Shown: piece after piece, positions 27,580-64,000 of the stretch | Layout: each line of letters opens with the position of its first letter | How positions within the stretch are numbered: position 1 is the first letter of the stretch | Assembly (NCBI GenBank): GCA_044224925.1 | Contig: JBGAJM010000010.1 | Location: 914-64,913, forward strand | Source: Candidatus Kapaibacterium sp. | GTDB taxonomy: Bacteria > Bacteroidota > Ignavibacteria > Kapaibacteriales > Kapaibacteriaceae | Direction of reading: 5' to 3' | Length of the DNA: 64,000 nucleotides | Notes under the pieces: model-generated | What the model was told of the DNA's origin: nothing | The model's input: the letters and a program-made list of their open reading frames with translations, nothing else | Databases searched by the model: none | Program-made: the position numbers and the translations under genes

Positions 27580-28273
27580 GCAACACCTCCCGTGGTGCAA
27601 CGGCAAGCCACTCAAGGTACGATAGCAACTTGTCGAGGACATTCCTGCGTCGTGCATATGCGCGTAGAACACGTATGTCTGTCGTGTAATCCGTGAATGC
27701 AAGTCTGCACAAATGTTCAAGGTCGGTCGGTGCAATGCCTGCCAGAACCTGTCCGTCAACAAACAGATCAACGATGATCTTCTCGAGCGATGGAGTCCCT
27801 TTTACCTTGTTGATGATCGGCGCCTTCGTGATCAACCTCCGAACCATTACGTCGAAGTTCGAAAACCCAACGTGATTCACTGCCCACTTCGTGTCTGTTT
27901 CAAGGATCACATCTCGAAACCGTTCGGATCGAAGTCGTTCGAACACCATCCCTTGACTATATCGATCGACTTCTACGATCGTAAGACGACGCATGCGCTG
28001 ATGAATGAACAATGGGTTCAAGGCTGTCAAGGACCAGATGCAGTAGTCATCAACGAGGGTTCGGATCACTTGCGCGAGCTCAATCTCCCTGGAAGTTTGA
28101 GGGAGCTCGAACAGGCGTTCAGCGCCGGTTCTGCACCACGTCCGCGAAACGGGCACGAACAGTCCCTTGGTCCGCAATTGGTTCACGCGCCACCGACCCA
28201 CACCGGAACTCGGAGTCGTTCCATAGCGGTCTAGGACCTCAACTCGTTTGATATACGTCGGGATGTTTTCCAT
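27569..28273 (-). CDS. AbiEi-family antitoxin (type IV TA, transcriptional regulator)
   Basis: 234 aa immediately upstream of and overlapping the AbiEii-like gene. Size and position fit AbiEi; the sequence match is weaker than for the toxin. Confidence 0.45.
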   Translation of the reverse strand: MENIPTYIKRVEVLDRYGTTPSSGVGRWRVNQLRTKGLFVPVSRTWCRTGAERLFELPQTSREIELAQVIRTLVDDYCIWSLTALNPLFIHQRMRRLTIVEVDRYSQGMVFERLRSERFRDVILETDTKWAVNHVGFSNFDVMVRRLITKAPIINKVKGTPSLEKIIVDLFVDGQVLAGIAPTDLEHLCRLAFTDYTTDIRVLRAYARRRNVLDKLLSYLEWLAVAPREVLHDP

Positions 28274-29149: not shown

Positions 29150-29162
29150 GAACGCCTTCGGC

Positions 29163-29333
29163 GTGCGACACGGAGTGCGACACGGAGTGCGACACTTGCG
29201 TGCGACACGGAGTGCGACACGGAGTGCGACACGGAGTGGGACACGGAGTGCGACACGGAGTGCGACACGGAGTGCGACACGGAGTGCGACACTAGAGTGC
29301 GACACGGAGTGTGACACTAGCGTGGGACACCTC
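29163..29333. repeat. intergenic tandem array of about 14 copies of the 12-nt unit GTGCGACACGGA (same unit that encodes S-H-S-V inside the cyclase genes)
   Basis: Head-to-tail repeats gtgcgacacggagtgcgacacgga... with a few variant units (ctagag, ggagtgg). No spacers, so not CRISPR. Confidence 0.9.
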
Positions 29334-34218: not shown

Positions 34219-34326
34219 GGAGGAAAGGAGAATGAGAAGTAAGAAAGAAGGAAAAGAGAAGGAAAAAAGAAGGAAAAAAGAAGTACAAAAGAAGTACAAA
34301 AGAAGTGGCACTTCGTGGGACACATG
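34219..34326. repeat. CT-rich (coding-strand) tandem repeats (TTCCTTCTCTTT / TTGTACTTCTTT units) filling the 108-bp gap between the P3 stop and the P2 start
   Basis: Plus strand reads ggaggaaaggagaatgagaagtaagaaagaaggaaaagagaaggaaaaaagaaggaaaaaagaagtacaaaagaagtacaaaagaagtggcac. Homologous to the tract after P6 (44396..44470). Confidence 0.85.
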
Positions 34327-38567: not shown

Positions 38568-38655
38568 GGAGGGAAGTTACGAATCAGAGTGACGAGTGAC
38601 GAGTGACAAGTGACACTTCGTGGGTCCTATATTGTTGATCCTTGATCCTTGATCT

Positions 38656-39936
38656 TTGATTCATCTTCCATCCTCCCCCATGATCCTCCGCTCCTTCCTC
38701 CTCCTGCTTGTCGGCGTGGTCGTGCTTGTCGGACGAGCACAGGGTCAGCATTGCACGAACGACCAGCGCTATACCGACGTGGTGACCTTCGATACCGCCC
38801 AGATCACGATCGGCGCGAATGTTCAATACGGCACGGCCAACGATGTGCAAGGGAGTCCGGTGCCGTTGCTCATGGACCTGTACTATCCGAACCTTGCCGT
38901 CGACCCAGTGGCGGCACGACCGATGATCGTGCTCTTTCATGGAGGCGGGTTCTCGTCGGGTGACAAACAGTCGGGCGACATCCGCGACCTCTGCGTGCAT
39001 CTGGCCATGCGCGGCTTTGTGTGTGCATCCGTGAACTATCGGCTCGGACATGACTTCTCGGAGTACGGACAGTACAAGGCGCGGTATCGCGCGATCCAGG
39101 ATGGCCATGCCGCCCTTCGATTCATTGTGCGCAATGCCGCCACCGTCCGCATCGACACGAACTGGCTGTTCGTTGGCGGACAAAGTGCCGGCTCGTTGCT
39201 GGCGCTGGGCATGGTGTATGCGGATCAGAGCGAGCTCGACAGTATATCGCTGCTCTATGGCACGACGGCTGTGAGCGCGGAGTTGGGAGGCTTGCATACG
39301 TCCGGCAATGCACTGACGAATTCGTATTCCATCAAGGGCATCTTCAACAACTGGGGCGGTGTTGTTGCGAGCGAAGTGGATGCGGACGAAATGATCCCCA
39401 CCATTGCCTTTCACGGTGGCCTCGATCCGTTGGTCCCGATCGATGTCGATACGTCGTTCGCACACTGCGCACTGCTTGGCTCGCGAGCGATCCATGCCGA
39501 TCTGATCGCCAACGGCGTGTGCAGCGAGTTGAACGTAGAGGTATCGGGTGGACACGGCATCTATCGCGATGCTGCAAGCGTGTTCAGAGCACAACATGCG
39601 AGCTGCTTCTTCCGCTCGATCTTCTGTGATCGTTGCTCGAGTTTCTCCACCACCGATTCGATCCCTTCATCGTGCTCGTCCCCTGTCCACGTCGACGAGC
39701 AACCGCGCACCACCTCATTCCACATCGACCCCAATCCTTTCGAAAGCATCATGACCATTGGAGGGTTGGAGGGTGGCGCGGAACTCACGGTCTACAACTG
39801 CTTCGGACAAGTGGTCCGCACAGCTCACGTCGGCAATGGCCCCCTTCACCTTGATGTATCGCCGGGTTTGTACATTCTGCACGTACAACCCACGGGAAAC
39901 AGCAGTAGATTCACGAAGGTGGTGGTGAGGCGATGA
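38656..39936 (+). CDS. alpha/beta-hydrolase esterase/lipase with T9SS C-terminal sorting domain
   Basis: Signal peptide; VLFHGGGFSSGD oxyanion motif; nucleophile elbow GGQSAGS; C-terminal Por domain IDPNPFESIMTIGG...LYILHVQPTGNSSRFTKVVVRR. Confidence 0.75.
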   Translation: MIHLPSSPMILRSFLLLLVGVVVLVGRAQGQHCTNDQRYTDVVTFDTAQITIGANVQYGTANDVQGSPVPLLMDLYYPNLAVDPVAARPMIVLFHGGGFSSGDKQSGDIRDLCVHLAMRGFVCASVNYRLGHDFSEYGQYKARYRAIQDGHAALRFIVRNAATVRIDTNWLFVGGQSAGSLLALGMVYADQSELDSISLLYGTTAVSAELGGLHTSGNALTNSYSIKGIFNNWGGVVASEVDADEMIPTIAFHGGLDPLVPIDVDTSFAHCALLGSRAIHADLIANGVCSELNVEVSGGHGIYRDAASVFRAQHASCFFRSIFCDRCSSFSTTDSIPSSCSSPVHVDEQPRTTSFHIDPNPFESIMTIGGLEGGAELTVYNCFGQVVRTAHVGNGPLHLDVSPGLYILHVQPTGNSSRFTKVVVRR

Positions 39937-40190
39937 AGAAGAGGAATACAGAATACACAATACAGAATTCAATCAAAGAATCAAGGAATCAAGAATCACA
40001 CGAAGTGTCGCACAGCGTGTCGCACAGCGTGTCGCACGCCGAAGGCGTTTTCTTCGTGTCGCACTCCGTGTCGCACGAAGTGCCACTTGTCACTCGTCAC
40101 TCGTCACTTGTCACTGTCGAACGAGGATCGTTCGACATCAAAGGCAAAGGCCCCATGCGCACGTATTGGTTGGAAAGGAGCGATCGATGA
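39933..40190 (+). pseudogene. stand-alone 85-aa ORF that is a chimeric C-terminal remnant of a TPR-cyclase gene
   Basis: MKKRNTEYTIQNSIKESRNQESHEVSHSVSHSVSHAEGVFFVSHSVSHEVPLVTRHSSLVTVERGSFDIKGKGPMRTYWLERSDR joins insert-2-type, insert-1-type and terminal beta-strand sequences. Its TGA stop overlaps the P5 ATG exactly as between intact pairs. Confidence 0.6.
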
Positions 40191-44376: not shown

Positions 44377-44395
44377 TACGGCCTGCCACGCAGTG

Positions 44396-44500
44396 CCACT
44401 TCTCTTGTACTTCTTTCTTCCTTCTCTTTTCCTTCTCTTTTCCTTCTCTTTTCCTTCTCTTTTCCTTCTCGTGACTCGTCACTCGTCACTTGTCACTTCC
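44396..44500. repeat. CT-rich 12-nt tandem repeat (TTCCTTCTCTTT x5) followed by 9-mer units (GTGACTCGTCACTCGTCACTTGTCAC), downstream of P6
   Basis: cttctcttgtacttctttcttccttctcttttccttctcttttccttctcttttccttctcttttccttctcgtgactcgtcactcgtcacttgtcac. Homologous to the P3/P2 intergenic tract. Confidence 0.85.
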
Positions 44501-45734
44501 ACAACATCCCCACCGGCACGGCATACATGTTGTTCCCAAAGCCAACACATGCAGTACCGTCATAGAGCACCACGCCGGCCACGAATCGATCACCTGCTAA
44601 CGACTTGAGTTTGCGAAGTCCGCGGAAGTCTGCGGCCGTTACCGTTGCCGAAGCCTTGACCTCAATGCCGGCCACCTGATGTTGCCCGCGCTCGAGTACA
44701 AGATCTACTTCTACACCATCCTTGTCGCGAGCATGAGAAAAGCGGATGTGATCCGTACGCCAACTAGCCTGCTTGAAGAGTTCTTGCACGACAAAGGTCT
44801 CGAGCAGCGGCCCAACCTTCGTACGATCATTCCACAGTGTCTCTTCGTTGAGCCCAAGCAGTGCACATGCAACACCTGTGTCAACGATATGCAGCTTCGA
44901 TGCCTTGACGAGACGATTCATCTGATTCACATGCCACGGTGGAAGTCTGTCGACAAGGAAGATCTGCTCCAGCAAGGTCATGTAGGACGCGATCGTTGTG
45001 CGGCTCATCTGAAACGGCGACGCAAGATCACTGATGTTCACTAAGCTCGACGTTTGTCCGGCCGTCATCACGAGCAGTCGGTGCAACACATCAACCGATG
45101 CGATCCGCGCAATGTCTCGCGCATCACGCTGAATGATCGATGTGCTATAGTCACGATACCATGCCGCTCGACGATACTCTTGCGTGCGTCGAAGTGCACG
45201 CGGATACCCGCCGGAAACGATACGCGTGATCAGGTCACGACCAAGTCGCTCAACCGTTCGCGTCGGGAACGACCCCTCGAACAGCGTGTCCAGAAACCGA
45301 GGTGTTGTCCCCGCCAGCTCGGACTGTGAAAATGGATACATGCGCAGGATGCTCATCCTACCGGCCAAGGAGTCTGCCAAGGTGGGAAGGAACAGGATAT
45401 TCGCAGAGCCGGTGAGTAGCACTTGCCCCGGTACGTTTCGCGCGTCAACTCGCGCCTTGAGAGGTGCGAAGATCGTAGGCACGCGTTGTACTTCGTCCAA
45501 AACGGCTCGGTTCGGCAGATCAGCCACGAAACCTGCGGGATCTGCCTTCGCCGACTTCAGGAGGGCAGGGTCGTCAAAGCTGAAGTACGTGTAGCCTTGG
45601 AATGCTGTAAGTTCCTTTGATGTTGTAGACTTACCACATTGCCTCGGACCATGCAGTAGCACCACCAGAGAATCTTCCAGGGCCTCGAGCAAGGACGGCA
45701 TACACGAGCGAACGATGGTCTGATCGGTGTCCAT
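44493..45734 (-). CDS. AAA+ family ATPase (COG1373-like, DUF4143 C-terminal region)
   Basis: Internal start MDTDQTIVRSCMPSLLEALEDSLVVLLHGPRQCGKST (Walker A). The ORF track extends to 45773. Confidence 0.6.
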   Translation of the reverse strand: MDTDQTIVRSCMPSLLEALEDSLVVLLHGPRQCGKSTTSKELTAFQGYTYFSFDDPALLKSAKADPAGFVADLPNRAVLDEVQRVPTIFAPLKARVDARNVPGQVLLTGSANILFLPTLADSLAGRMSILRMYPFSQSELAGTTPRFLDTLFEGSFPTRTVERLGRDLITRIVSGGYPRALRRTQEYRRAAWYRDYSTSIIQRDARDIARIASVDVLHRLLVMTAGQTSSLVNISDLASPFQMSRTTIASYMTLLEQIFLVDRLPPWHVNQMNRLVKASKLHIVDTGVACALLGLNEETLWNDRTKVGPLLETFVVQELFKQASWRTDHIRFSHARDKDGVEVDLVLERGQHQVAGIEVKASATVTAADFRGLRKLKSLAGDRFVAGVVLYDGTACVGFGNNMYAVPVGMLWK

Positions 45735-45754
45735 GATTCTGCAATCTACGAAAT

Positions 45755-45873
45755 AGTAGCGGCTACTTGCCAACTTATAGTGCGGCTACTTGCCAACTTT
45801 TAGTGCGGCTACTTGTCAACTTTTAGTGCGGCTACTTGCCATCTTTTAGTGCGGCTACTTGCCACTCGTCACT
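45755..45873. repeat. 5 tandem copies of a ~24-bp unit (TAGTGCGGCTACTTGCCAACTTTT), ending in 9-mer units
   Basis: tagtagcggctacttgccaacttatagtgcggctacttgccaacttttagtgcggctacttgccaacttttagtgcggctacttgccatcttttagtgcggctacttgccactcgtcactcgtaactc. The first unit contains the perfect hairpin AGTAGC-G-GCTACT. Lies between the Fic stop and the AAA ATPase start. Confidence 0.85.
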
Positions 45874-45879
45874 CGTAAC

Positions 45880-47076
45880 TCAATTCGCGCCTTCATTCAG
45901 GATGGAGAGATACCGGTGGTATGCAAAGACACGATTGCGCTGCTTCCCGGTGATCTCACGCACGATGCCAAGGCTCGTCAGAACATCGATGGCTTTGCTT
46001 GCTGTCGGGAACGTCATAGCGGCCATCGCACAGATCCGATCGATGGTGACGATAGGACGTGCTTGCAATGCCGAATGCACACGGAGGACGCTGCCGAGAT
46101 TACGGCCATGTAAGCGAATGACTTCACTGTCGGTGTTGAAGCATGTGATGAGTCGCTGTGCGGTGTCGACCGCACCTGCAGAGGTTTGCTCCACGCCCTC
46201 CAGAAAGAACCCTAGCCACTGCTCCCAATCGCCCGTTGTCCGCACATGACCAAGGAGACGGTAGTATTCGGCCCTGTGTTTCTTGAGATACAGACTCAGG
46301 TACAGAAGTGGCTGTCGGAGTACGCGCTCGTGTTGCAAGATCATGGCAATGAGTAGCCGACCAGTTCGCCCGTTCCCGTCGAGGAATGGGTGAATGGTCT
46401 CGAATTGCACGTGTGCCAATGCGGCTTTGACCAGTGTTGGCACATCGTTCCGGTGGATGTACTTCTCAAGGTCCGACATGCACTGTTCTACCACATGGGC
46501 TGGTGGTGGCACGAACTCCGCATTGCCGGGTCGCGTGCCACCGATCCAGTTCTGACTGCGGCGGAATTCACCCGGCATGCGCTCAGAGCCACGTCCACCT
46601 GCCATGAGTCGCTCGTGGATCTCCTTGATCAGTCGATTTGAAAGTGGGAACCCTGCCGCCATTCGGTCAAGGCCATGCTGCATCGCGGCCACGTAGTTCG
46701 AGACCTCGGCCACGTCGTCGAATGGCACGCCCGGCGCTTCGTCGAGTTCAAAGAGCAAAAGATCGGACAGCGAAGACTGCGTCCCCTCGATCTGTGACGA
46801 AAGCACTGCCTCCCGTCGCACGTACGAATACAGGAAGATGCTTGCGTCCGGCAGCAAGGCCGACACGCTATCCAGTCTCCCACATGCCAGGAGCGCACGC
46901 TCCATGGTCCTACTCAAGGCAGCATCCATAAGGATGGGTGGAAAAGGCGGCAAGGCACTGGGCACATAGGCCCGTACTGTTTCACCTCCCACCGTCGTGG
47001 TTTCATATGTTCCGTTTTCTTGGCGGCGCATCGATCCAATGTACGAAAGATCTTTCGTTATTAAAGTAAATGCCAC
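45880..47076 (-). CDS. Fic/DOC family protein (adenylyltransferase-type)
   Basis: Fic motif HPFLDGNGRTGR. About 398 aa, possibly starting at internal Met 16. Confidence 0.8.
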   Translation of the reverse strand: MAFTLITKDLSYIGSMRRQENGTYETTTVGGETVRAYVPSALPPFPPILMDAALSRTMERALLACGRLDSVSALLPDASIFLYSYVRREAVLSSQIEGTQSSLSDLLLFELDEAPGVPFDDVAEVSNYVAAMQHGLDRMAAGFPLSNRLIKEIHERLMAGGRGSERMPGEFRRSQNWIGGTRPGNAEFVPPPAHVVEQCMSDLEKYIHRNDVPTLVKAALAHVQFETIHPFLDGNGRTGRLLIAMILQHERVLRQPLLYLSLYLKKHRAEYYRLLGHVRTTGDWEQWLGFFLEGVEQTSAGAVDTAQRLITCFNTDSEVIRLHGRNLGSVLRVHSALQARPIVTIDRICAMAAMTFPTASKAIDVLTSLGIVREITGKQRNRVFAYHRYLSILNEGAN

Positions 47077-48579: not shown

Positions 48580-48648
48580 TCTTCGATTCTGTATTATGTA
48601 TTCTTGATCCTGTATTCTTGATTCTGTATTGATCTTCCCATTCCCCTG

Positions 48649-49197
48649 CTACCCTCCCCACCTCAACCCCAATCGAACCGGTATCGACATTACTTGTACG
48701 ACATCGAACCGCGTCACCATGGAGACCTCGAGCGTGAGAGAGCCACCACCCATGAGATAGAGATCGGTAAGAAGACCTGTCTCCATCGTGAACACACCAT
48801 TGGTTGAGATCGGATAGCCAAACGTAAGGCGAGCACACGGAAGCAAGGTGCGCCGTGGATCTGCGAGTTCAAATTCGAGTCCGAGGTCCACCGCCGTATA
48901 CGGTTCATACTGATACGCCGTCTTCGGTCCGGCGGGTGACGCTGTGATGTCCTTCACAACGTTGATGGAGCGATATCCTCCCAGCACCAGCATTTGACTA
49001 CGTGGTATCCGCCAGCTCATGTCGATGGCCCACGTGATCGTTCGCTCCAATCCTCCGGACGCCGTCACCGGGAATGCCAAGCCGGGCGCAATGCCAACTC
49101 GCCAGTCCTGACGTTGCCGGTGATCATCGAAGAGCCCTGCAGCATGAGCGTAGGAAGCAGGGAGCAAAAAGGTAATGAGAAGGAGGAAAGGAAGCAT
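48649..49197 (-). CDS. putative outer-membrane beta-barrel protein with signal peptide
   Basis: MLPFLLLITFLLPASYAHAAG signal; alternating hydrophobic pattern; C-terminal ...RLGLRWGG typical of small OM beta-barrels. Confidence 0.45.
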   Translation of the reverse strand: MLPFLLLITFLLPASYAHAAGLFDDHRQRQDWRVGIAPGLAFPVTASGGLERTITWAIDMSWRIPRSQMLVLGGYRSINVVKDITASPAGPKTAYQYEPYTAVDLGLEFELADPRRTLLPCARLTFGYPISTNGVFTMETGLLTDLYLMGGGSLTLEVSMVTRFDVVQVMSIPVRLGLRWGG

Positions 49198-54439: not shown

Positions 54440-56556
54440 CTTTCTTCCAGCCAATAGGTATTCATGGGGCCTTTGCCCTTTATGTCGATCAAACCGCGGA
54501 GTTGAGTTACTAGTGACAAGTGACGAGTGACGAGTGGCACTGCGTGCGACACCGAGTGCGACACGGAGTGCGACACGGAGTGCGACACGGTGTGGGATTC
54601 TGGATTGCCGGATTCGGTGATTGGATTCTGTATTGTGTATTCTGTATTGCTCTTCAGATTCAACGCAAACGCTTCGGAGACATGCACCCGCCCTGGCTCC
54701 CCAGTGGACTCCATTCGTGAGGCGACGTTCACCGTATCTCCCCACACATCGTATTGCAATCGTTGCGTTCCGATCACGCCGGCAGTAACAGGCCCACAAT
54801 GCACGCCAATTCTGTATTGCAGCATTCTAGGATTGGATTCTGTATTCTGTATTGTGTATTGTATTCGATTCATCTCCAAGGCGCAGAGTGCTGCGTTTGT
54901 GATGCTGTCGAACGACACGGCCATATAGCTGTCGCCAATTGTCTTGATCTTCGTGACGTGATGCTGTTTGCAGATCGCATCGCATTGCGTGAAGACGTCG
55001 TCGAGGAGTTCGATCACTTCCTGCGACGTCATCGACGACGAGAGATCCGTGAAGCCAACGATATCCAAGAAGATCACGGCTGCATTCTCATAGTGATCGT
55101 TCACCACCTCGCCCCGTGCCACCCTTTCGGCCACCTCTTTGGGAAGGGTGGAATGGAGCACGGCGAGCTGTTTCTCGTGTTGCCGTTCGCGTGCATCGAT
55201 CTCGCGTTGCTTCGCCTGCATTGCGAGCTTCGTGGCGGTCTCCTTCCCGGTGGTCTCTTCCATGATACGCGCATACTCCGTGTTATGCGTTACATAGGCG
55301 GCAAGGTCCTGCCGCGCGAGAGCGAGTTCGCGGAGACGTCGATGAATTTCGATCTGCAGCTCGGGCAAGTGTATGCGCTGGGTGATCTCGAGAGCAGAGT
55401 GGAGCGTCTGTTGCGCCTCATCAATTCGACCGTAGTGTTCATGGAGCGAGGCACGACACAGCTCGATGCTCACCACAACCATGGGACTGTCGGTCTGTGC
55501 TGCATCCAGCGTTGCCAGCAGCATCTCCGCTTCAGAGATCTCGCCGACATGTATCAATACCTCGAGGATGTGACCCTGTAGTCGGAGCACGGCCTCATGT
55601 TCGCCGTGGCGTTGCTTCAGATCCAAGGCTCGACGGAAATGATCGAGTGCTTTTTCTGTTTCGTCTTTCTTTTTGAGTACGATGCCGATATTGGCAAGGA
55701 GCGACGATAGAACGTAGTCGTTCCGTGCGACATGCTCCATTGCCATCACGCGTTCGTAGTGACTGAGAGCCTGGTCATAGTTTCCGGCGGCATTATACAC
55801 GTTCCCGATGTTTGCCAATATTCGGGCAATGCCATCAAGATCGTTCAAAGCCTCATAGATGGCCAACGCGCGATGATAGTGTTCAAGCCCCGTCGGATAG
55901 TCCGCCGTGTGGTAGCAGATGATGCCGATGTTGTTATGGATACCGGCGACACTTCTCGTCATACCGAGGCGATCCGACAGTGCGAGCAGTCGATGGCATG
56001 TCTCCAGTGCATCGGCATACTGACTCGTCGCAATGTAGATGCCTGCGATATTCCCAAGGACAAGGGCAATGCCGTTGTGGTCTTCAGCGCGAGTGAACAG
56101 CTCAAGCGCCTTGTGATGATACTCAAGTGCTTCGCTCGTGGCTCCACAGTTGCTCTTGACGTAGCCGATGCTATTCAAGGTGTGCGCCGTCCCGTTCACA
56201 TCGTCGACGAGTTTAAATTGCTGTAGAGCATCGCTGTAGAGGGCGAGTGCACGCTCATGATCTCCTTGCTCGGAGTGGACCAGGGCGATGTTGCTTATGA
56301 CACTTGCCGTGCCGACAGCATCTCCGAGCTCTTGGTAACGGTCCAAGGAGGCATGAAACAGGTCGAGGGCACGCTCCGCGTAGCCTTGACGATACATATC
56401 CAGGCCGCGCAAGCGCCCGGCAAGCGCCTGTGCCTCGAGCGTTCCGATCTCGTCCAGTTCAACCGCATATTGCTCGAACTTCTCAGCATTCCGAATGCTG
56501 ATGTCGCGCTCGACGTCGGTCTGAATGTCGGCAAATGTTCGTTGTTGCTGTGTCAC
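54436..56556 (-). CDS. TPR-repeat + class III adenylyl cyclase protein (paralog P8, subfamily A)
   Basis: Its stop overlaps the P7 start (ATGA). Insert site 1 carries the other module type (IQYTIQNTESNPRMLQYRIGVHCGP). Site 2 is ESHTVSHSVSHSVSHSVSHAVPLVTRHLSLVTQLRG. Confidence 0.8.
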   Translation of the reverse strand: MTQQQRTFADIQTDVERDISIRNAEKFEQYAVELDEIGTLEAQALAGRLRGLDMYRQGYAERALDLFHASLDRYQELGDAVGTASVISNIALVHSEQGDHERALALYSDALQQFKLVDDVNGTAHTLNSIGYVKSNCGATSEALEYHHKALELFTRAEDHNGIALVLGNIAGIYIATSQYADALETCHRLLALSDRLGMTRSVAGIHNNIGIICYHTADYPTGLEHYHRALAIYEALNDLDGIARILANIGNVYNAAGNYDQALSHYERVMAMEHVARNDYVLSSLLANIGIVLKKKDETEKALDHFRRALDLKQRHGEHEAVLRLQGHILEVLIHVGEISEAEMLLATLDAAQTDSPMVVVSIELCRASLHEHYGRIDEAQQTLHSALEITQRIHLPELQIEIHRRLRELALARQDLAAYVTHNTEYARIMEETTGKETATKLAMQAKQREIDARERQHEKQLAVLHSTLPKEVAERVARGEVVNDHYENAAVIFLDIVGFTDLSSSMTSQEVIELLDDVFTQCDAICKQHHVTKIKTIGDSYMAVSFDSITNAALCALEMNRIQYTIQNTESNPRMLQYRIGVHCGPVTAGVIGTQRLQYDVWGDTVNVASRMESTGEPGRVHVSEAFALNLKSNTEYTIQNPITESGNPESHTVSHSVSHSVSHSVSHAVPLVTRHLSLVTQLRGLIDIKGKGPMNTYWLEER

Positions 56557-56639
56557 GGCTCAATTTGGTCACTTTTCCGCAAATGAATCTCATTCCTCCT
56601 CTCTGCGTACATCGCGCCCGCTCAGAATTTTCTGCCACC

Positions 56640-56770
56640 CACTCGTCACTCGTCACTTGTCACTCCTCACGCTCCTCATCACTTGTCACTTGTCACTCGT
56701 CACTTGTCACTCTACTCGTCACATGTCACTCGTCACTTGTCACTTGTCACTCGTCACTTGTAACTCTCTC
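56640..56770. repeat. tandem array of about 14 copies of the 9-mer TCACTCGTC / TCACTTGTC in the divergent promoter region between P8 and the serine hydrolase gene
   Basis: cactcgtcactcgtcacttgtcactcctcacgctcctcatcacttgtcacttgtcactcgtcacttgtcactctactcgtcacatgtcactcgtcacttgtcacttgtcactcgtcacttgtaactc. Confidence 0.9.
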
Positions 56771-56827
56771 GCCCAGCATGTGCGCACCGCCCACGCTGAT
56801 GCTGATCTTGGATTCCAGTTCACCGTC

Positions 56828-57823
56828 ATGGACACAACGGGGGCGTTCGAGAACGTGAACCTCGGCCTGGCCGACGTGGCCGGCAACGTGCCGGTGACGG
56901 ATTCGACGGTCTTCATGTCGTATTCGATGACGAAGGTGATCACCGCCATCGCCGCTCTGCAACTTGCGCAAGAGGGTCTGCTCGACCTCGATGCCGATGC
57001 GCATCGGTACCTTCCATGGCTCCCCTATGCACAGCCCATCTCCACCCGACAGCTTCTCGCGCACACGGCCGGCATCCCCAATGCCATTCCATTACGATGG
57101 GTGCATCTGCCCGAGGCGCATGGGACGTTCAAAGAAGACTCGGCTCTGCGGGCCGTGCTGGCGGATAATGCCGACCTGACGTCGACGCCCGGTACGCGCT
57201 ATCGCTATAGCAACATCGACTACTGGATCGTGGGTGCCATCATCGAACACATCACCGGCCGATCGTATGAAGCGGTCGTTCGCGACAAGATCTTCCGGCC
57301 CCTTGGCCTCACCCACTCCGGCTTCTACATCCCTTCCGCCCTCCCCCTTGCAAAGGGCTATCTGCGTCGGTGGACGTGGATGAACCTCTTCAAATGGTTG
57401 GTCACCGATAGCGAGTACTGGGGCGAGTATGAAGACGGCAAGCTCAACATCGTTCCGCACTACGTGAACGGTCCGGCCTATGGCGGCCTCTACTCGACCA
57501 GTCACGACCTCGCCCTGATCTGCGCCGATCTCCTGCGCACAAACAGCATCCTCCTCAACGCCGCATCACGCGCCACGCTCTTCACCGCAGCCACCCTGAC
57601 CAACGGAAGCACGACCGACATGACGCCCGGCCTGCACATCGTCCCCCATCCCTCCCTTCGCATTTTCATGAAGGAAGGCGGCGGGGCGGGATTCCACAAT
57701 GAACTCCGCCTCTATCCCGACCTCGGCATGGTAGCCGTGCTGCAGACGAACGATGCGACGTTCGATGTGAAGAAGGTCTATGAAGAAATGGAAGAGAGAT
57801 CAATGATCAAGGATCAAGAATGA
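56828..57823 (+). CDS. serine hydrolase (beta-lactamase/transpeptidase-like fold)
   Basis: SxxK motif in FMSYSMTKVITAIAAL; start set at MDTTGAFENV (56828). The ORF-track N-terminal extension is translation of the 9-mer array (LVTRHLSLLTLLITCHLSLVTCHS). Confidence 0.6.
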   Translation: MDTTGAFENVNLGLADVAGNVPVTDSTVFMSYSMTKVITAIAALQLAQEGLLDLDADAHRYLPWLPYAQPISTRQLLAHTAGIPNAIPLRWVHLPEAHGTFKEDSALRAVLADNADLTSTPGTRYRYSNIDYWIVGAIIEHITGRSYEAVVRDKIFRPLGLTHSGFYIPSALPLAKGYLRRWTWMNLFKWLVTDSEYWGEYEDGKLNIVPHYVNGPAYGGLYSTSHDLALICADLLRTNSILLNAASRATLFTAATLTNGSTTDMTPGLHIVPHPSLRIFMKEGGGAGFHNELRLYPDLGMVAVLQTNDATFDVKKVYEEMEERSMIKDQE

Positions 57824-57911
57824 CGGAGGGTGGTGCAGAATTCGTTCCGAATTCTGTATTCTTGATGCTTGATGCTTGCGACATCCTCCCATTTTCTTCC
57901 CTTGCTATTCT

Positions 57912-59405
57912 ATGTCTGTGACTGCCGTTGGGATCGACCTCGGTACGACGTATACAGTGCTCTCTGCGATCAATCCGGCCGGAAAACCGGAGATCATTGC
58001 AAACCGAGATGGTGATCGGATCACCGCATCTGCCGTGCTTTTCCAAGCCGATGGGACGACCGTTGTGGGTCAGCATGCAGCAGAGAGCGCAGAGCTGGAG
58101 CCCGAGCGCGTCGTACGCTGGGTAAAGCGGCACATTGGTGATCCCTCGTGGAAGTTCACCCTTGATGGTGTCGACCACACGGCCGTTGACCTTTCCGCCA
58201 TGATCCTTGCCAGTGTTCGCGATCAAGCTGCCGACGTGATCGGAGCGTTTGTGCAGGCCGTGATCACTGTGCCGGCCTACTTTGATGAGTTCCGCCGAAA
58301 GGCCACGATGGATGCGGCTGCAAAGGCCGGCATCGATGTGCTTCGCATCATCAACGAACCAACGGCGGCAGCACTTGCCTACACGACAACAGGAACGGTG
58401 GAAGGGAATGTTCTTGTGTATGACCTTGGGGGCGGAACGTTCGACGTATCGATCGTCCGCGTCGACTCGCCCACACAGATGACCGTGATCGCATCCGAAG
58501 GTGATCATCAACTTGGCGGTGTGGACTTCGATCGCAGGCTGGCGATCTACTTCGATGAACTCTTCAAGGCCGAGCATAGCGTGTCTCTCTTGGATGGCAG
58601 CGACGAATCTGCAATGCAGCACACGCTGGTAGAAGCCGAGAAGGCGAAGAAGAAGCTCACAACCGTAGCAACGGCCAATGGTGTGTTGTTGCGACGTGGC
58701 GACGCCGTGCTCATGACGTCGGTAGATCGCGCGACCTTCACAACTCGAACGGCCGATCTGCTCGTTCGAACAGAGATGCTCCTGGATGAAGCATTGGATG
58801 CTGCGGCACTTCGGTCCGAGGATATCTCGAATGTCATCCTTGTTGGCGGGTCATCGCGCATGCCACAGGTACACGACATGTTGCGGAAGAAGTTCAACCG
58901 TGAACCACTGCGCCATATCAATCCTGACGAGGCCGTGGCACTTGGTGCAGCCGTCCAAGCGGGTCTGATCTTGCATGAGAAGGGCTCGTATCGGAACGAG
59001 GCTACGTCTGCAACCTATCTTGCCCATACCAAGGTAACAGACGTCACGAATCACAGCTATGGGGCCATTGTGATCGAAACGGAATTCACTGGCGCACGCA
59101 AGCGAAACTCCATCATGATCCGGAAGAACACGCCGATCCCTTGCTCGAGAACACAAACGTTCTATACGTTAGCTCCCAATCAAACGATCGTGTCTTGTCA
59201 GATCACGCAAGGCGAAGATGAAGATCCGAGTTTTGTGAATGTGATCGCCGAAGGTGAGCTGGAGCTTCCGTCGGGACGACCATCCGGATGTGAGATCCGC
59301 GTCACGTATCGCTATGATGCGAATGGACGCATGTCGTGCACGTATCTCGACGTGTTGACGGGGATCTCAAAGGACTTCGATCTCGACCACTCGTCTAGGG
59401 GCTAG
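57912..59405 (+). CDS. Hsp70-family protein, short form (about 497 aa, truncated substrate-binding lid)
   Basis: MSVTAVGIDLGTTYTVLSAI (phosphate-1 motif), VLVYDLGGGTFDVSIV, ILVGGSSRMPQV. Shorter than DnaK, comparable to the HscC/YegD class. Confidence 0.8.
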   Translation: MSVTAVGIDLGTTYTVLSAINPAGKPEIIANRDGDRITASAVLFQADGTTVVGQHAAESAELEPERVVRWVKRHIGDPSWKFTLDGVDHTAVDLSAMILASVRDQAADVIGAFVQAVITVPAYFDEFRRKATMDAAAKAGIDVLRIINEPTAAALAYTTTGTVEGNVLVYDLGGGTFDVSIVRVDSPTQMTVIASEGDHQLGGVDFDRRLAIYFDELFKAEHSVSLLDGSDESAMQHTLVEAEKAKKKLTTVATANGVLLRRGDAVLMTSVDRATFTTRTADLLVRTEMLLDEALDAAALRSEDISNVILVGGSSRMPQVHDMLRKKFNREPLRHINPDEAVALGAAVQAGLILHEKGSYRNEATSATYLAHTKVTDVTNHSYGAIVIETEFTGARKRNSIMIRKNTPIPCSRTQTFYTLAPNQTIVSCQITQGEDEDPSFVNVIAEGELELPSGRPSGCEIRVTYRYDANGRMSCTYLDVLTGISKDFDLDHSSRG

Positions 59406-59406
59406 T

Positions 59407-60591
59407 GTGCTATCGGCATTCCTCTTCTTTCTCCTTGTGCGCTTCATCTTCTACCTGATGAAGGACAAGGACACATCTGCCGAAAAGGTACCCACAGGTG
59501 GTTGGCGCCTGCGTCGTAAGGCGAAGAAGGGGATCACGCTCGACATTCGCACGGTCACGAGATCTAACGACGAAGAAGATCTACGAATGTCCATTCTTCG
59601 ATTCTCTGTGAACGGGATCATCGACGTTGTGCACGCGGATCGAGCGGTCACATGTGTCGTGCGTTTCTACGACATCACCAAGGGAACATCGCACGAGCTA
59701 CCGATCTACAGCACGCACCATGCCATCGCCAATGAGCGCGCTGAAGCAGTGATCGTGTTCAAAGCGTTTTCACGATCGGTCTTCTGCGTCTTCACCGACT
59801 TTGAGATCGGTCTGGTCTCACCGCACTTCCTGCACTGTCCATACCACGGCGAGAGCACGATCCTCGCAACGCTGACCGTGATCGACACAACGTATCCGGA
59901 GATCGAGTTCGGAACCTGTTCGGCAACCTTTACGATGACGGAGACTTCGATCGGATATGTCGCCATCCAAGAGATCGTGAAGGATCGGGTCAAACCTATC
60001 TGCGACCTTGTTGCGACCATCCTCACGCGCGATGAACCCGTTGAGCACGACGTTGTTACCGGTGCATGTGCATACGTAGCCGATCTTGGACGTGATGCGC
60101 TTCCGTGGCACCTTGTTGAGAGCATCGTGCAGACCGCCATGGAAGCGTCCATGCGCGACGCGCAACGGACAGCGCTGCCGCGCATGGACCTGCTCAAGCA
60201 ACAGATCGCCGCCATCGATGTTGACGAGTATCCCGGGATCGGCGAGCTTCTCTGTTCCATCTGCTTCTTCTGTTACGGGCAGCTCGGTGGGATCTCTGAT
60301 GAAGCGCAACAGGTTGTATCGTTGATCTGTGCGCGGTTCGATGTGCCCAGAGAGCTGATGCTCGAATTGCGCGACAGCTTTATCCGAACGCATATGTATG
60401 ATGCCGACGTGAATCCGATCCTGGCAGAGATGCCGGAGGGTCTGGATCGCGACCAGCAGATCCAGTATCTCCATGACGAGTACCGGCGTTGGCGACAACG
60501 CGTGACGAATGTCGATCAGGATGTCGTTCGCGAAGCCACCCATCGCTTGGAGCTGATCGCATCATTGAGAGCCAGCCTCTCTTCTTCGTGA
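59407..60591 (+). CDS. membrane-anchored protein with TerB-like region and degenerate J-like C-terminus (paralog A)
   Basis: N-terminal TM helix MLSAFLFFLLVRFIFYL. C-terminus ...RTHMYDADVNPILAEMPEGLDRDQQIQYLHDEYRRWRQRVTNVDQDVVREATHRLELIASLR. Two-nt gap after the Hsp70 gene. Confidence 0.5.
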   Translation: MLSAFLFFLLVRFIFYLMKDKDTSAEKVPTGGWRLRRKAKKGITLDIRTVTRSNDEEDLRMSILRFSVNGIIDVVHADRAVTCVVRFYDITKGTSHELPIYSTHHAIANERAEAVIVFKAFSRSVFCVFTDFEIGLVSPHFLHCPYHGESTILATLTVIDTTYPEIEFGTCSATFTMTETSIGYVAIQEIVKDRVKPICDLVATILTRDEPVEHDVVTGACAYVADLGRDALPWHLVESIVQTAMEASMRDAQRTALPRMDLLKQQIAAIDVDEYPGIGELLCSICFFCYGQLGGISDEAQQVVSLICARFDVPRELMLELRDSFIRTHMYDADVNPILAEMPEGLDRDQQIQYLHDEYRRWRQRVTNVDQDVVREATHRLELIASLRASLSSS

Positions 60592-60594
60592 GTA

Positions 60595-61776
60595 TTGTCC
60601 ATGCAGATCTGGCTCATCATCGTTGTCTTCATTGCCGTTGCGGCGATCGTGTACCTGCTGATCGTCGCACGAAGACCCGACGTTACGGCGTCGACCGTTC
60701 GTATGGCAACGGCAGATGGGGATGAAGCGCCTCCACTCATACTCCGCGATGGCTTGGTCATGGATGATGCAGGGAATGCCCGCCCCATCAAAGAAGTGGT
60801 GCTGACACACGCACTCTACCTGCGCGCATCCCGAGGTACGTGTCTCGTGCATGTTCAGCTCCTCGACATCACCGAAGGCGAAGTCATGGCGTGGCCGGTC
60901 TACTCCACGATGTCCGAATGGACGAATGACCACGCTGAAGTGAACTACGTCTTGAGCTACCCCATCGAAGATCATGTCGTTCCTTTGCATGGTCACGTTA
61001 TTGGATCGATCCAGCTCGACACGCTTCAATGCGCCAAGAGCGGACCGCGGACCTTGCGCGTCATGGTATCATTGTTCAGAGAGGATGTGGTTGACGAATT
61101 CATCGTTCGCAACACCGTCGACTTCCCATACGTCGAGACGGGACCCGGTTACGAGCAGATCCACAAAGAATGCGCCTTCGACGTAGATCAACTGTCAGGC
61201 ATCGGGATCGCAGCCGCAACGCTTCTCGGAGAGCTTCACAACGAGCGCATTGCGCTCGTCGAATCGATCCTTCTTGAAGCGTACGTTCCCACGATGCCGT
61301 ATCGCGTCTATGCATCGTTTGTTGCTCAGGGCCTACGGAAGGCCATCGATGTATGGAATGAGGCCAATCCGTCATTCGAAGAGGTGCTTCGGCATCATGC
61401 GAATGTGTTGACGTCAAGTACGGATGTTCGCATGCGAGCATTTGCCTATGAGCTCTGCCTGCGCGTGTTCGCCGACCTGCACACGATGAATGAAGCAGCG
61501 ATGAATGCGTTGCATGATCTGGAGTCCACGCTTGAGCTCGATGAAGCGACCCGGAACGAATTACAACACCGGTATCTGCGCACGAAGATGTATGATGCCG
61601 ATGTTGATCCGATCCTTCTCGAAATGCCGCCCGATCTTGACAGAGATGCGAAGATCGAATACCTGGACGGACAGTATCGAGCCTGGCGGCGGCGCGTGAC
61701 CAATGCCGACCCGGAGATCGCCGCCGAAGCCGCTCGGCGCCTCGATCGTATTGCACACCATCGAGCCAAGCTCTAG
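60595..61776 (+). CDS. membrane-anchored paralog B of the preceding gene
   Basis: N-terminal TM helix IWLIIVVFIAVAAIVYLLIV. The C-terminal block RTKMYDADVDPILLEMPPDLDRDAKIEYLDGQYRAWRRRVTNADPEIAAEAARRLDRIAHHR is homologous to paralog A. Confidence 0.5.
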   Translation: MSMQIWLIIVVFIAVAAIVYLLIVARRPDVTASTVRMATADGDEAPPLILRDGLVMDDAGNARPIKEVVLTHALYLRASRGTCLVHVQLLDITEGEVMAWPVYSTMSEWTNDHAEVNYVLSYPIEDHVVPLHGHVIGSIQLDTLQCAKSGPRTLRVMVSLFREDVVDEFIVRNTVDFPYVETGPGYEQIHKECAFDVDQLSGIGIAAATLLGELHNERIALVESILLEAYVPTMPYRVYASFVAQGLRKAIDVWNEANPSFEEVLRHHANVLTSSTDVRMRAFAYELCLRVFADLHTMNEAAMNALHDLESTLELDEATRNELQHRYLRTKMYDADVDPILLEMPPDLDRDAKIEYLDGQYRAWRRRVTNADPEIAAEAARRLDRIAHHRAKL

Positions 61777-61777
61777 C

Positions 61778-62773
61778 ATGATCGACCTTACTTCCTTCGA
61801 ACGCACATGCGAGCAGGTTCGCTTCTCGGTCCACGAGCCCTATGCCGACGTCGCCTCGGCCTCTTCATCGTATTCGCTTGCGCATGTGCGGCTGACGGGG
61901 TTGCAAGTGACCTCCACCTCGGTCCCCATCCTCCATCGCGCACTCGAACGCGCAGCCGCATCACTCATGCTTGATGTTCTCCCGGAGATCTACGTGGTCG
62001 CGCAGTCGGAGCCGAATGCCCACGTGTTCTCGCATGGATCCGCACAATCGCCCGTGGTGGTCGTGAACAGCGGACTTGTGCAATTGCTACGTCCGCCGGA
62101 GCTCGAATTCGTTCTCGCGCATGAACTTGCCCACTTCGGTTTGCGACACGATGCGCAAGCTCGCTCGCAATCGATGCAGCGCAATGCCGAGATCAGCGCA
62201 GATCGCGTCGCTCTCGTGGCCTGTAAGAGCCTAACGCTTTGTACGAGAGTGATGATCACGTTGGCAAGTGGACTTCCGATGGAATATCTCGGACTGGACA
62301 TCGACACCTTTGTCCGTCAGCTCGATGTAGATGCCGATGAGGCTGCACGTCGCTGGGAGTTTCAAAGCACCCACCCGGCGTTGCCCTTCCGCCTTTGGGC
62401 CTTGCTCCGTTTCAGTCATAGCGATGTATTTGCCCGCCTTTCCGGTCAGGGAATGGATGGCCTCCCCTTGGAGCAGATCGATGACGAGATCGATGCACGC
62501 GCATCGACCATGCATCGAGAGGACGACGCCGAAGACACCACATATGCAACAGCCTTGGCCTGGCACAGTGTACGCAAGGTTCTGCAGGGCGGAAAGGTGG
62601 ATGCGGATGGGTACTCAGATCTCGTCAAGAAGTGCGGAAGCGACTATGCCTATCATGTCACGGCCATTGCCTTGGCGCGTGGTCCCGAAGCCGTAGCGGC
62701 GCAGGCGAAACGCTCATTGCAACGACTGCAGGACACACATCCCGAACTTGCACGGAAGCTCATGTCGGCATAA
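61778..62773 (+). CDS. M48-family-like zinc metallopeptidase (soluble, HExxH)
   Basis: HELAHFGLRHD zinc-binding motif with a downstream Glu (NAEISADR). Start at MIDLTSFERT (61778), 2 nt after the paralog B stop. No TM helices seen. Confidence 0.55.
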   Translation: MIDLTSFERTCEQVRFSVHEPYADVASASSSYSLAHVRLTGLQVTSTSVPILHRALERAAASLMLDVLPEIYVVAQSEPNAHVFSHGSAQSPVVVVNSGLVQLLRPPELEFVLAHELAHFGLRHDAQARSQSMQRNAEISADRVALVACKSLTLCTRVMITLASGLPMEYLGLDIDTFVRQLDVDADEAARRWEFQSTHPALPFRLWALLRFSHSDVFARLSGQGMDGLPLEQIDDEIDARASTMHREDDAEDTTYATALAWHSVRKVLQGGKVDADGYSDLVKKCGSDYAYHVTAIALARGPEAVAAQAKRSLQRLQDTHPELARKLMSA

Positions 62774-62788
62774 CGATCGCGCACGACC

Positions 62789-62846
62789 AACTCGTCACTC
62801 GTCACTCGTCACTTGTAACTTGTCACTCGTCACTCGTAACTCTCTT
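62789..62846. repeat. short array of the 9-mer CTCGTCACT / CTTGTAACT in the convergent intergenic region
   Basis: aactcgtcactcgtcactcgtcacttgtaacttgtcactcgtcactcgtaactc. Confidence 0.85.
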
Positions 62847-63719
62847 CCTCATTTTCTTCCACCCGAACGCTGCCATTGGCGCCACCACTACTGCCCAGAG
62901 CCATTGCCAGTTCTTGCTGACGAACCCTGCCACCATTTGCCCTACCGTGACGTTGACGCGGATCTGATGCTCGTACGTCTTGATCGAACGCGTGATCTCT
63001 TTGCCGTCAACATTGAGTTTGGTGGAGAGTGAGACGTTCAGGAAATGCTCGCCGGGTTCTGTTGGCGTTACCTGCCAGCGCCATTCGGTGTCGTCTGCTT
63101 CGAGAATTCCTTGCTCTGCCGGTGTGAGCTCCGTGATCTCGAACCCATCGCCTGAGAGTTTGGCCGTCACAACGTTGCCGATGTTCACCGCGGCGCCTTC
63201 AACGCTACCGCTCTCAACGATCTCTTGCTTGAGCTCTTCGACCGTCTTCTGCACGGAGAGTCGCAACTGCACACGCTGCACATCGTCGAGCTGGATCTCG
63301 TCGGGAGCATTGAAGGCAATGCTTGCGCGCTGTGTGGTGATCCGCAACGTGGCAGGTGTTGGCGTTGGCGTTGTGACGGGTGCGGGATCAGGCGATGCTG
63401 TCGTGGTTGCAGGCGTACGCGAAGGACGGATGGACGTCGATGTCGGTATGTGCGAGAACGTTCGCGGTATTGTGCTCCCCGAACCGGATGAACTCGTTCT
63501 CGGCACGGGAACAGGACGTGGTCGAGGCGGATGTGCGATCACGTGCGACGAGGTCGATCGTACTGATATTGCGGTTGCGGTCATGCGAACAGTGTCGCTT
63601 GCGAGAACCACTTCGTCCGGCGCCGTTTCCTTCATCGTAGCAGGTCGCTCGGGTTCACCACAGGAACACAACAATGCACACAACGAAATGGTCGAGATCA
63701 CGATGGTCATCGTCTTCAT
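62823..63719 (-). CDS. hypothetical lipoprotein-like protein with a Pro/Thr-rich linker and a C-terminal TM helix
   Basis: Start MKTMTIVISTISLCALLCSCGEP (lipobox). PT-rich segment (PATTTASPDPAPVTTPTPTPA). C-terminal WQWLWAVVVAPMAAFGWKKMRKR. The ORF-track N-terminal extension overlaps the upstream gene and was trimmed. Confidence 0.45.
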   Translation of the reverse strand: MKTMTIVISTISLCALLCSCGEPERPATMKETAPDEVVLASDTVRMTATAISVRSTSSHVIAHPPRPRPVPVPRTSSSGSGSTIPRTFSHIPTSTSIRPSRTPATTTASPDPAPVTTPTPTPATLRITTQRASIAFNAPDEIQLDDVQRVQLRLSVQKTVEELKQEIVESGSVEGAAVNIGNVVTAKLSGDGFEITELTPAEQGILEADDTEWRWQVTPTEPGEHFLNVSLSTKLNVDGKEITRSIKTYEHQIRVNVTVGQMVAGFVSKNWQWLWAVVVAPMAAFGWKKMRKRVTSDE

Positions 63720-64000
63720 GCTGCTCCCTCCATCACCACTTCTTGCTGTTGCGTCATCATACGCTTCTCGGCCTGCATGGACGTGATGGCTCGCACCATC
63801 AGGACAGAGAGAACAACGGCCAACAGTTCGAAGATGTCGCTGATCAGCATACCCCATGAGAGACCGAGATAGCCTTCGGCCGTTTCGACCATTCTTCCTG
63901 CACGCAACATGGCGCCAGCAGCCAACTGTGCCAACACGAAGGCCGACCACCACCAGACGATCAGCATTGATGTTGACGAGCGCATCCATGCAAGACCGCC
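63716..64000 (-). CDS. membrane protein, C-terminal part (gene continues beyond the window end)
   Basis: Hydrophobic ORF ending at 63716, overlapping the downstream lipoprotein start by 4 nt (ATGA). The upstream portion lies outside the window. Confidence 0.35.
   Translation of the reverse strand, partial: GGLAWMRSSTSMLIVWWWSAFVLAQLAAGAMLRAGRMVETAEGYLGLSWGMLISDIFELLAVVLSVLMVRAITSMQAEKRMMTQQQEVVMEGAA

Follow-up and report, generated by a model that had tools for sequence, protein, structure and literature searches.

Tandem TCACTYG heptamers as the 3' block of a composite repeat in and around the cyclase genes of a Kapaibacterium genome fragment

Among the long simple repeats of bacteria, tandem heptanucleotides are the most common. 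Short tandemly repeated repetitive (STRR) heptamers of cyanobacteria were reportedly described by Mazel et al. in 1990, and small dispersed repeats of Nostoc are said to have been described by Elhai et al. in 2008. Iterons consist of units of ~17-22 bp beside a rep gene and an origin. Here, we analysed a stretch of 64,000 nucleotides (hereafter the window) from Candidatus Kapaibacterium sp. (assembly GCA_044224925.1, contig JBGAJM010000010.1, positions 914 to 64,913), in which arrays of the heptamer TCACTYG lie inside and around genes for class III adenylate cyclases. With a probability of roughly 0.6, we consider that these arrays are heptanucleotide simple-sequence repeats forming the 3' block of a lineage-specific composite repeat, and that they are not sites for a shared regulator.

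Heptanucleotide repeats form a known class of long simple-sequence repeats (LSSRs; Mrazek et al. 2007, as summarised in PMC4679880). TAACTGA direct repeats stand before start codons in Beggiatoaceae, Cyanobacteria and Bacteroidetes, and a translational role was proposed for them (MacGregor 2015, PMC4679880); heptamer repeats also lie near starts in Nostoc (bioRxiv 10.1101/2022.06.06.494920). In Haemophilus influenzae, the (ATCTTTC)n repeat in the 5' untranslated region of hmw1A and hmw2A tunes expression by its length through a hairpin cut by RNase III (PMC12721329), the only heptamer repeat of its kind whose mechanism has been worked out. The exact repeat strings of the window appeared in no relevant paper of our literature search. 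The arrays resemble LSSRs and STRRs in their tandem 7-nt units, their many dispersed and mostly intergenic loci, their mixed heptamer families and their 7-nt length steps between relatives, whereas they differ in the unit (TCACTYG), in the lineage (an FCB-group metagenome-assembled genome, or MAG, related to Ignavibacteria/Kapabacteria) and in that the heptamer is here one block of a fixed composite with 12-mers, in frame within an enzyme family. The small dispersed repeats of Nostoc are similar as short dispersed elements with heptamer tracts, found in intergenic DNA and in tolerated parts of genes, but no hairpin-defined insertion unit or target duplication was seen for the composite, whose dispersal may reflect the decay of cyclase gene copies. 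Unusual for the known heptamer class are the fixed make-up of the composite, its presence in frame within the catalytic domain throughout a gene family and a degree of conservation beyond the neutral rate.

The initial annotation had described these arrays as built from a 9-mer. Such arrays do exist, far above chance (29 matches to TCACTYGTC in the window, with 2.1 expected and a maximum of 6 over 100 shuffles), but their unit is not 9 nt long: Tandem Repeats Finder (TRF) returned a period of 7 at every named site, with 2.7-18.7 copies, and the claimed 9-mer corresponds to one TCACTYG unit plus the first 2 nt of the following one. The main array lies between the start of the cyclase gene P8 (56556, minus strand) and a gene of the beta-lactamase family that starts at a GTG at 56780, called the hydrolase gene below. 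TRF delimited it at 56640-56766 (period 7, 18.7 copies, 78% matches, plus a higher-order period of ~40 nt), and parsing it in register resolved 16 full units, of which 10 match TCACTYG exactly, besides a partial one and two irregular ones of 5 nt, close to the "about 14 copies" counted earlier. The four shorter intergenic arrays that had been pointed out were also found (Table 1), while the first 28 kb of the window hold a single isolated copy of the 9-mer. Head-to-tail 7-nt units, of which the class asks for three or more, dispersed loci above chance and copy numbers that differ between relatives place the arrays in the heptamer class, although by its unit the repeat is distinct from TAACTGA.

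P8 (54436-56556, minus strand) and seven further open reading frames (ORFs) encode tetratricopeptide repeat (TPR) plus class III cyclase proteins, and the heptamer is the 3' block of a composite, (GAATACA)n-(GAATCnnG)n-(GTGTCGCACnnn)n-(TCACTYG)n, that all of them carry. In full, the cyclase version reads (GAATACA)n-(GAATCnnG)n-CACGAAGTG-(GTGTCGCACnnn)2-10-(TCACTYG)1.7 or 4.7, and it sits between 'SEAFAIQLK' and 'IERGSIDIKGKG', in frame, in eight of the eight paralogues and in one 3' remnant. These inserts measure 99-204 nt, every one a multiple of 3, and their heptamer portion comes in only two sizes in the window, 1.7 or 4.7 units. The earlier idea that the heptamer encodes an LVT segment in the cyclases was thereby upheld and extended to eight ORFs and the remnant, in which it reads SSSLVT or PLVTRHLSLVT; the 12-mer block encodes VSH(S/N/E/A). 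The unit is not a multiple of 3, and yet the eight paralogues and the orthologues examined are all in frame.

The insert occupies a loop of the catalytic domain between the last helix and the penultimate strand, a position with ~10 residues in solved cyclases and up to 66 here. An AlphaFold model of a fragment (mean predicted local distance difference test score, pLDDT, of 81) assigned the insert, residues 201-238 of the fragment, a pLDDT below 50, which predicts disorder for most of its length, and placed the beginning of the penultimate strand at the heptamer-coded LVT. A second cyclase loop, ahead of 'FRIGVHCG', also holds 12-mers. When 86%-identical P6 orthologues were compared, the sole indel in 706 residues fell within the insert, one protein having five 12-mers and 1.7 heptamers and the other no 12-mers and 4.7 heptamers. 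Variants of the 12-mer are also unevenly represented, GTGTCGCAC outnumbering GTGTCCCAC by 66 to 9 in the window and the two being about equal in the relative GCA_018266735, and the other relative, a JGI contig, has hardly any 12-mers and longer in-gene heptamer arrays. Judging from these comparisons, the expansion of repeat blocks is genome-specific. Cyclases of other lineages (proteins P0008, P0013, P0017 and P0023) have the same two loops filled with NEAL repeats, SEQRIANQIAN or ESRINNQESNQE, and these different repeat peptides in the same loops suggest that repeat invasion is family-wide and lineage-specific.

The intergenic arrays carry marks of the same module. Junction CACGAAGTG followed by heptamers recurs after the P3 stop (34317, minus strand) and upstream of P4 (38622, minus strand), where it is preceded by GATCAAG units that form an array (38635-38660) abutting the esterase start, and a diverged junction, CACGCAGTG, follows the P6 stop. 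In the relatives, the junction and heptamers, with a GAATACA block attached, stand upstream of a Band_7 gene and between DUF4199 and DUF4331 genes. Because the intergenic arrays share junction sequences with the in-gene module, a common origin is indicated, and the association of arrays with cyclase genes appears best explained by common descent rather than by a shared regulator. A decay series can be laid out as well, from a complete cyclase 3' remnant (39942-40186, with its IERGS...YWLE tail) through a partial remnant ORF in a relative and module-only copies to bare heptamer arrays. A second truncated cyclase 3' remnant lies at ~48593-49196, beside an inserted SBBP/type IX secretion gene; two secreted proteins of the window bear type IX secretion tails. 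Read from their sequences, both remnants would show that cyclase copies frequently decay and rearrange.

We then compared orthologous arrays between the window and two relatives, GCA_018266735.1 ('MAG: Bacteroidetes bacterium', loci L119-L121) and the JGI contig (L347, 262 kb), both of which also have further TCACTYG loci. The hydrolase of the former is 95% identical to that of the window in protein and 96% in DNA (86% for an orthologous cyclase), and that of the JGI relative 86% in protein and 84.5% in DNA; farther cyclase homologues carry the labels Ignavibacteria or Kapabacteria. All three genomes share one layout, with the cyclase start, a ~50-nt block, the array and the hydrolase start in this order. 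At the main site the arrays measure ~128, 89 and 131 nt (~18, 12 and 18.7 units) in the window, GCA_018266735 and JGI, respectively, and the array after the M48 peptidase gene has 7.6, 4 and 6 units in the three genomes, again with conserved flanks. Array length, for which a comparison of strains had been suggested, thus differs between orthologues at both sites while the flanks align.

Within the main array, however, the window and JGI are identical at 118 of 127 columns (93%), compared with 70% at the third codon positions of the adjacent gene, and the match runs unit by unit, covering the irregular units and even which Y positions are C and which are T. By this alignment, conservation of the main array clearly exceeds that of synonymous sites, and the M48-downstream array is likewise conserved far above synonymous sites over the same divergence. 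The earlier suggestion of slippage-prone contingency elements therefore holds for the length changes between relatives and fails for rapid switching: units that remain one-to-one orthologous despite 30% divergence at third positions are not those of a high-switching locus. With 93% against 70% identity, neither a rapidly switching repeat nor neutral decay fits the main array. This also bears on the view that the intergenic arrays have no function and are what remains of cyclase 3' ends after decay, their length drifting by slippage. The decay series, the junction motifs common to relic-like arrays and the coding module, and the strong rearrangement of the region between relatives speak for it; yet relics should decay, the two arrays instead outdo synonymous sites, and the arrangement of block, array and start is kept in three lineages. 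We therefore regard it as unlikely.

The initial annotation had also proposed that the arrays are iteron-like sites for a common regulator, which the evidence does not support. As in plasmid and phage iterons, the repeats are direct and some are intergenic, but the unit has 7 nt instead of 17-22 nt, the higher-order periods of 21 and 40 nt are imperfect, and most copies are direct repeats inside coding sequences or just after stops rather than in promoters. The same unit stands beside the unrelated Band_7, DUF4331 and M48 genes in the relatives and occurs in many phyla, and a Pfam scan of 16 ORFs of the window (5 of which had no match at all) revealed no Rep-type initiator and no DNA-binding regulator family. 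In favor of double-stranded DNA sites for a transcription regulator of the cyclase locus, one can cite the position of the main array in a divergent intergenic region, the conservation of its individual units and the 21-nt period, equal to two helical turns. We nevertheless consider such a role very improbable. A CRP-type cAMP-receptor site (TGTGA/TCACA), which the presence of cyclases brings to mind, was rejected by reasoning alone, direct repeats being unsuited to a two-fold symmetric dimer site.

Instead, we favor simple-sequence repeats that form the 3' block of the composite, and these would arise and change via slipped-strand mispairing and unequal recombination. The intergenic arrays would act, if at all, within the transcript of the gene that shares their sense strand, and no dedicated DNA-binding regulator would be needed. 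Several observations weigh against this. Unit-by-unit conservation would fit protein-DNA binding equally well, the positions of the arrays are inconsistent in this lineage, some lying before starts and some after stops, and one array in a relative runs antisense ahead of a gene with a Shine-Dalgarno sequence. In addition, all the genomes are metagenome assemblies, in which repeat lengths may include assembly errors.

The two strands of the heptamer are not equivalent. The sense strand of TCACTYG is stop-free in all frames, whereas its complement has a TGA in each frame, once per 21 nt. From this asymmetry it follows that in-gene copies are always sense-oriented and that two antisense genes end inside arrays: a 388-aa ORF (62823-63989, minus strand) convergent to the M48 gene takes its last codons and its TGA from the antisense strand of the downstream array, and an inserted ATPase gene (44493-45773, minus strand) likewise ends in an array-supplied TGA. 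Arrays can be read through in the sense direction only and terminate genes that enter from the opposite side. In composition, the sense strand of the intergenic arrays is 64-85% pyrimidine with a C/G ratio of 2.4-4.6, which is compatible with a Rho-loading (rut) role for the arrays that follow stops. A general rule of pyrimidine-rich leaders was rejected, as the 20 nt upstream of 44 called genes of a relative are 49% pyrimidine.

At the hydrolase gene, the main array ends 13 nt before the GTG, and no Shine-Dalgarno sequence is present; the JGI relative retains this GTG but lacks the ATG that overlaps it out of frame. Being G-poor, pyrimidine-rich and unstructured, the main array is a putative 5' leader of the serine-hydrolase mRNA and possibly holds its first codons. 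In the latter case, the hydrolase would gain from it a lipoprotein-type signal peptide at its N-terminus and a low-complexity tether, much as a loop of the cyclases is built from these repeats. The hydrolase frame is indeed open across the array in two of the three genomes (from an ATG at 56525 in the window and from an ATG at 9779 in JGI), an in-array ATG (56723 in the window) is in this frame in all three, and the length differences of -39 and +3 nt are both multiples of 3. Four substitutions in the 5' part of the array give L>V, L>I, a synonymous change and L>M, and the irregular units encode LSLLTLLITC or VSLITLLITC, similar to the signal peptide and lipobox of distant homologues (for instance MVIISC, LLALISC and LISSLC) at a similar distance from the domain. 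An in-frame TAA directly ahead of the array occurs in GCA_018266735 alone, which is also the genome whose array is short by 39 nt, including the hydrophobic part. An open frame is, however, expected by construction from sense arrays that are stop-free in every frame, and coding alone leaves the 93% nucleotide identity unexplained when synonymous sites are at 70%. The implied n-region would have ~44 residues, an overlap of 32 nt would arise between the ORF and the divergent cyclase start, gene calls differ (JGI starts at the GTG after the array and NCBI at the in-array ATG) and some homologues have no signal peptide. Considering both sides, we hold the coding of a signal peptide to be a tentative possibility, and a somewhat doubtful one.

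The block of ~50 nt next to the main array is near-invariant across the three genomes although the flanking genes are 84-96% identical, and it is probably the promoter or leader of one of the two divergent genes. Its minus strand reads GGAGGAATG, a Shine-Dalgarno-like motif with an ATG ahead of the cyclase start. A consensus scan of 56400-56900 found no sigma-70 promoter and no intrinsic terminator, with the reservation that promoters of this group may differ, and Rfam gave zero matches over the whole window. The RNA fold of 56575-56800 (-27.4 kcal/mol, compared with a shuffle mean of -28.95; z = +0.45) indicated no significant structure. An hmw-type hairpin was rejected on this basis, together with the lack of a complementary arm and a distance of 2 kb to the nearest antisense copies. 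The hmw repeat is alike in being a pyrimidine-rich heptamer array of 10-20 units; it is transcribed between promoter and start, pairs with a G-rich arm and switches fast, whereas the main array is stable over ~30% synonymous divergence.

In species-representative genomes, three exact tandem TCACTYG units were found at at least 118 sites, which belong to many phyla. Among the matches listed, period 7 dominates (156 arrays, with at most 11 for any other short period), and the Acidobacteriota, mostly Pyrinomonadaceae, stand out: counting ORFs of at least 100 aa at loci L003-L116, 23 of their 60 listed arrays are in sense and end at most 20 nt ahead of an ATG that opens a long ORF, as opposed to 0 of 60 in antisense. 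The start-proximal arrays of this phylum are, among the same matches, all in leaders and none in ORFs. They have 4-5 units, often alternating TTG and TCG, and end 3-18 nt before the ATG, and the gaps between acidobacterial arrays and the ATG mostly lack a Shine-Dalgarno-like motif. Acidobacterial arrays are also often inverted pairs in divergent intergenic regions, and they often adjoin CACGATT heptamer arrays. The other phyla, again among the matches listed, exhibit no start-proximal bias. At L061 (1245-1745), in a Chlorobiaceae MAG, two blocks of ~250 nt each, one of GAATGCT and one of TCACYCG heptamers, adjoin directly in the space between convergent genes, and they pair repeat types in the way that the window's composite does.

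One interpretation of these placements is that the arrays are sequence-specific mRNA leader elements in place of the Shine-Dalgarno sequence, recognized by a protein (cold-shock domain or ribosomal protein S1) that binds single strands and covers 7 nt. The sense-only position before acidobacterial ATGs supports it, as do the absence of a Shine-Dalgarno sequence at the main array and at the P4 array (which end 13 nt from the GTG and 20 nt from the ATG, respectively) and the unstructured RNA of the main array. There is also the precedent of TAACTGA, for which a leader role was proposed too, with CspB binding one heptamer per protein (MacGregor 2015, PMC4679880). Conversely, only these two of the five intergenic arrays of the window are in sense before a start without a Shine-Dalgarno sequence, the other three (44468, 45854 and 62790) not lying upstream of a start, the other phyla show no bias and TCACTYG is only 2-6 times above shuffles in viral contigs. 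On balance, this interpretation is improbable. In those control scans, TCACTYG gave 59 arrays, composition-matched shuffles 10, 16 and 33, and TAACTGA 107, such that TCACTYG is only moderately favored and heptamer arrays of any kind are common. Because shuffles are only 2-6 times rarer and TAACTGA is commoner, the spread across phyla is weak evidence of a specific function.

The arrays resemble TAACTGA repeats in that some of them lie in sense just upstream of starts without a Shine-Dalgarno sequence, occasionally at ORF edges and in scattered phyla, with stops on one strand only and a suspected role in rearrangement. In TAACTGA, however, the stops are on the forward strand, and in TCACTYG on the reverse, which makes the latter translatable in the orientation that precedes genes. 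Also unlike TAACTGA, start-proximal placement concerns two of five intergenic arrays in the window and is clear in Acidobacteriota. The further-reaching claim that TCACTYG is a cross-phylum, sequence-specific mRNA-start element, replacing the Shine-Dalgarno sequence and read by a conserved single-strand-binding protein with a 7-nt footprint, strikes us as distinctly unlikely. If true, it would explain the sense placement 3-18 nt before starts in Pyrinomonadaceae and the above-neutral unit-by-unit conservation of the main array, and it would mean that a stop-free element was absorbed into ORFs in this lineage, as the cyclase loop and perhaps as the hydrolase leader.

Arrays also mark places at which the relatives differ in gene content. 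A gene for a DUF4143/AAA_14 ATPase matching the PADLOC candidate defense family PDC-S01 (E 1e-159) lies within 44493-47076, and its neighbor encodes a Fic protein with a match to SoFic (E 4e-119). Together with a 23-mer array, the ATPase gene makes up ~1.37 kb inside a heptamer array, of which the arrays at 44468 and 45854 are the left and right halves, and a close relative has an uninterrupted array of 5.4 units abutting Fic. A 5-kb cassette (57824-62789) encodes an Hsp70-like ATPase, two paralogous proteins of ~394 aa and the M48 peptidase; it is present in the window and GCA_018266735 and absent from JGI, where the array directly follows the hydrolase stop, and the array at 62790 forms its right boundary. 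PADLOC and Pfam gave no match for the two ~394-aa partners of the Hsp70-like protein. To the left of this cassette are GATCAAG/CTTGATG arrays with a perfect hairpin, CAGAATTCG...CGAATTCTG, and to its right the TCACTYG array. Relatives also have different genes upstream of the esterase, and repeat arrays lie at this breakpoint. Beside a 12-mer array stands a gene for an AbiEii-type nucleotidyltransferase toxin (26491-27771, minus strand), and AbiEii, PDC-S01 and SoFic together suggest a variable, defense-rich island.

These cases raise the possibility that the arrays are hot spots where recombination between identical repeats at dispersed sites inserts or exchanges cassettes. Two cassettes that differ between relatives end at arrays and the breakpoint upstream of the esterase is a third case, but three cases are few in a region chosen as repeat-rich, and no target-site duplications or recombinase genes were found. 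A hot-spot property would besides be a side effect rather than a function. As an account of the arrays, we find it rather implausible.

Table 1. Positions of the composite inserts, TCACTYG arrays and adjoining features in the window
Feature	Coordinates	Strand	Remarks
Composite insert, cyclase P1	30287..30385	-	99 nt, 4.7 heptamer units
Composite insert, cyclase P2	32113..32223	-	111 nt
Composite insert, cyclase P3	34399..34506	-	108 nt
Composite insert, cyclase P4	36354..36509	-	156 nt
TCACTYG array, 4 units	38587..38615	-	ends 20 nt upstream of cyclase P4 ATG (38567)
Composite insert, cyclase 3' remnant upstream of P5	39942..40115	+	174 nt, 4.7 heptamer units
Composite insert, cyclase P5	41999..42190	+	192 nt, nine 12-mers
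Composite insert, cyclase P6	44161..44304	+	144 nt
TCACTYG array, 4.3 units	44468..44498	+	downstream of cyclase P6 stop, after 11-mer array 44399-44470
TCACTYG array, 2.7 units	45854..45881	+	right half of split array; after 23-mer array 45754-45864; abuts Fic gene
Composite insert, cyclase P7	52424..52627	-	204 nt
Composite insert, cyclase P8	54505..54651	-	147 nt, 4.7 heptamer units
Near-invariant noncoding block, ~50 nt, adjoining main array	56575..56625	.	alignment of three genomes
Main TCACTYG array	56640..56767	+	about three 40-nt higher-order blocks; TRF, register parse, orthologues in two relatives
Beta-lactamase-family serine hydrolase gene	56780..57823	+	Pfam; GTG start 13 nt past array end
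TCACTYG array, 7.6 units	62790..62842	+	17 nt past M48 peptidase stop

Companion repeat families accompany the heptamer, one 35-kb region also holding the 12-mer GTGTCGCACTCC, the 7-mers GAATACA and GATCAAG, the 11-mer CTTCTCTTTTC and a 23-mer. The 11-mer arrays (CTTCTCTTTTC, G-poor) at 34221-34326 (minus strand) and 44377-44470 (plus strand) occupy spacers after cyclase stops, and one of them extends to ...CCTTTCCTCC right before the next cyclase ATG; the CCTCC in this context is the anti-Shine-Dalgarno region's own sequence and not its complement. Intergenic arrays of the 12-mer (GTGTCGCACTCC) lie in antisense at 29150-29317 (13 copies) and 26418-26483 (5 copies). The first of them is preceded by a stable hairpin, ACGCC-TTCG-GGCGT, directly after a peroxiredoxin stop, and in several cyclases this palindrome recurs among 12-mers, where it codes for the 'SHAEGV' of loop 1.

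For the biology of this lineage, unit-by-unit conservation above the neutral rate argues for a function over mere slippage noise, and the strand asymmetry of stops accounts for the orientation of the arrays and for their becoming parts of genes. The placement before acidobacterial starts offers a clean system for testing the translation-leader idea. Start and stop calls beside such arrays are unreliable, which is a warning for annotation. Finally, an enzyme family of many paralogues with repeat-coded, variable loops in the catalytic domain constitutes a natural experiment in the generation of protein variation by simple repeats.

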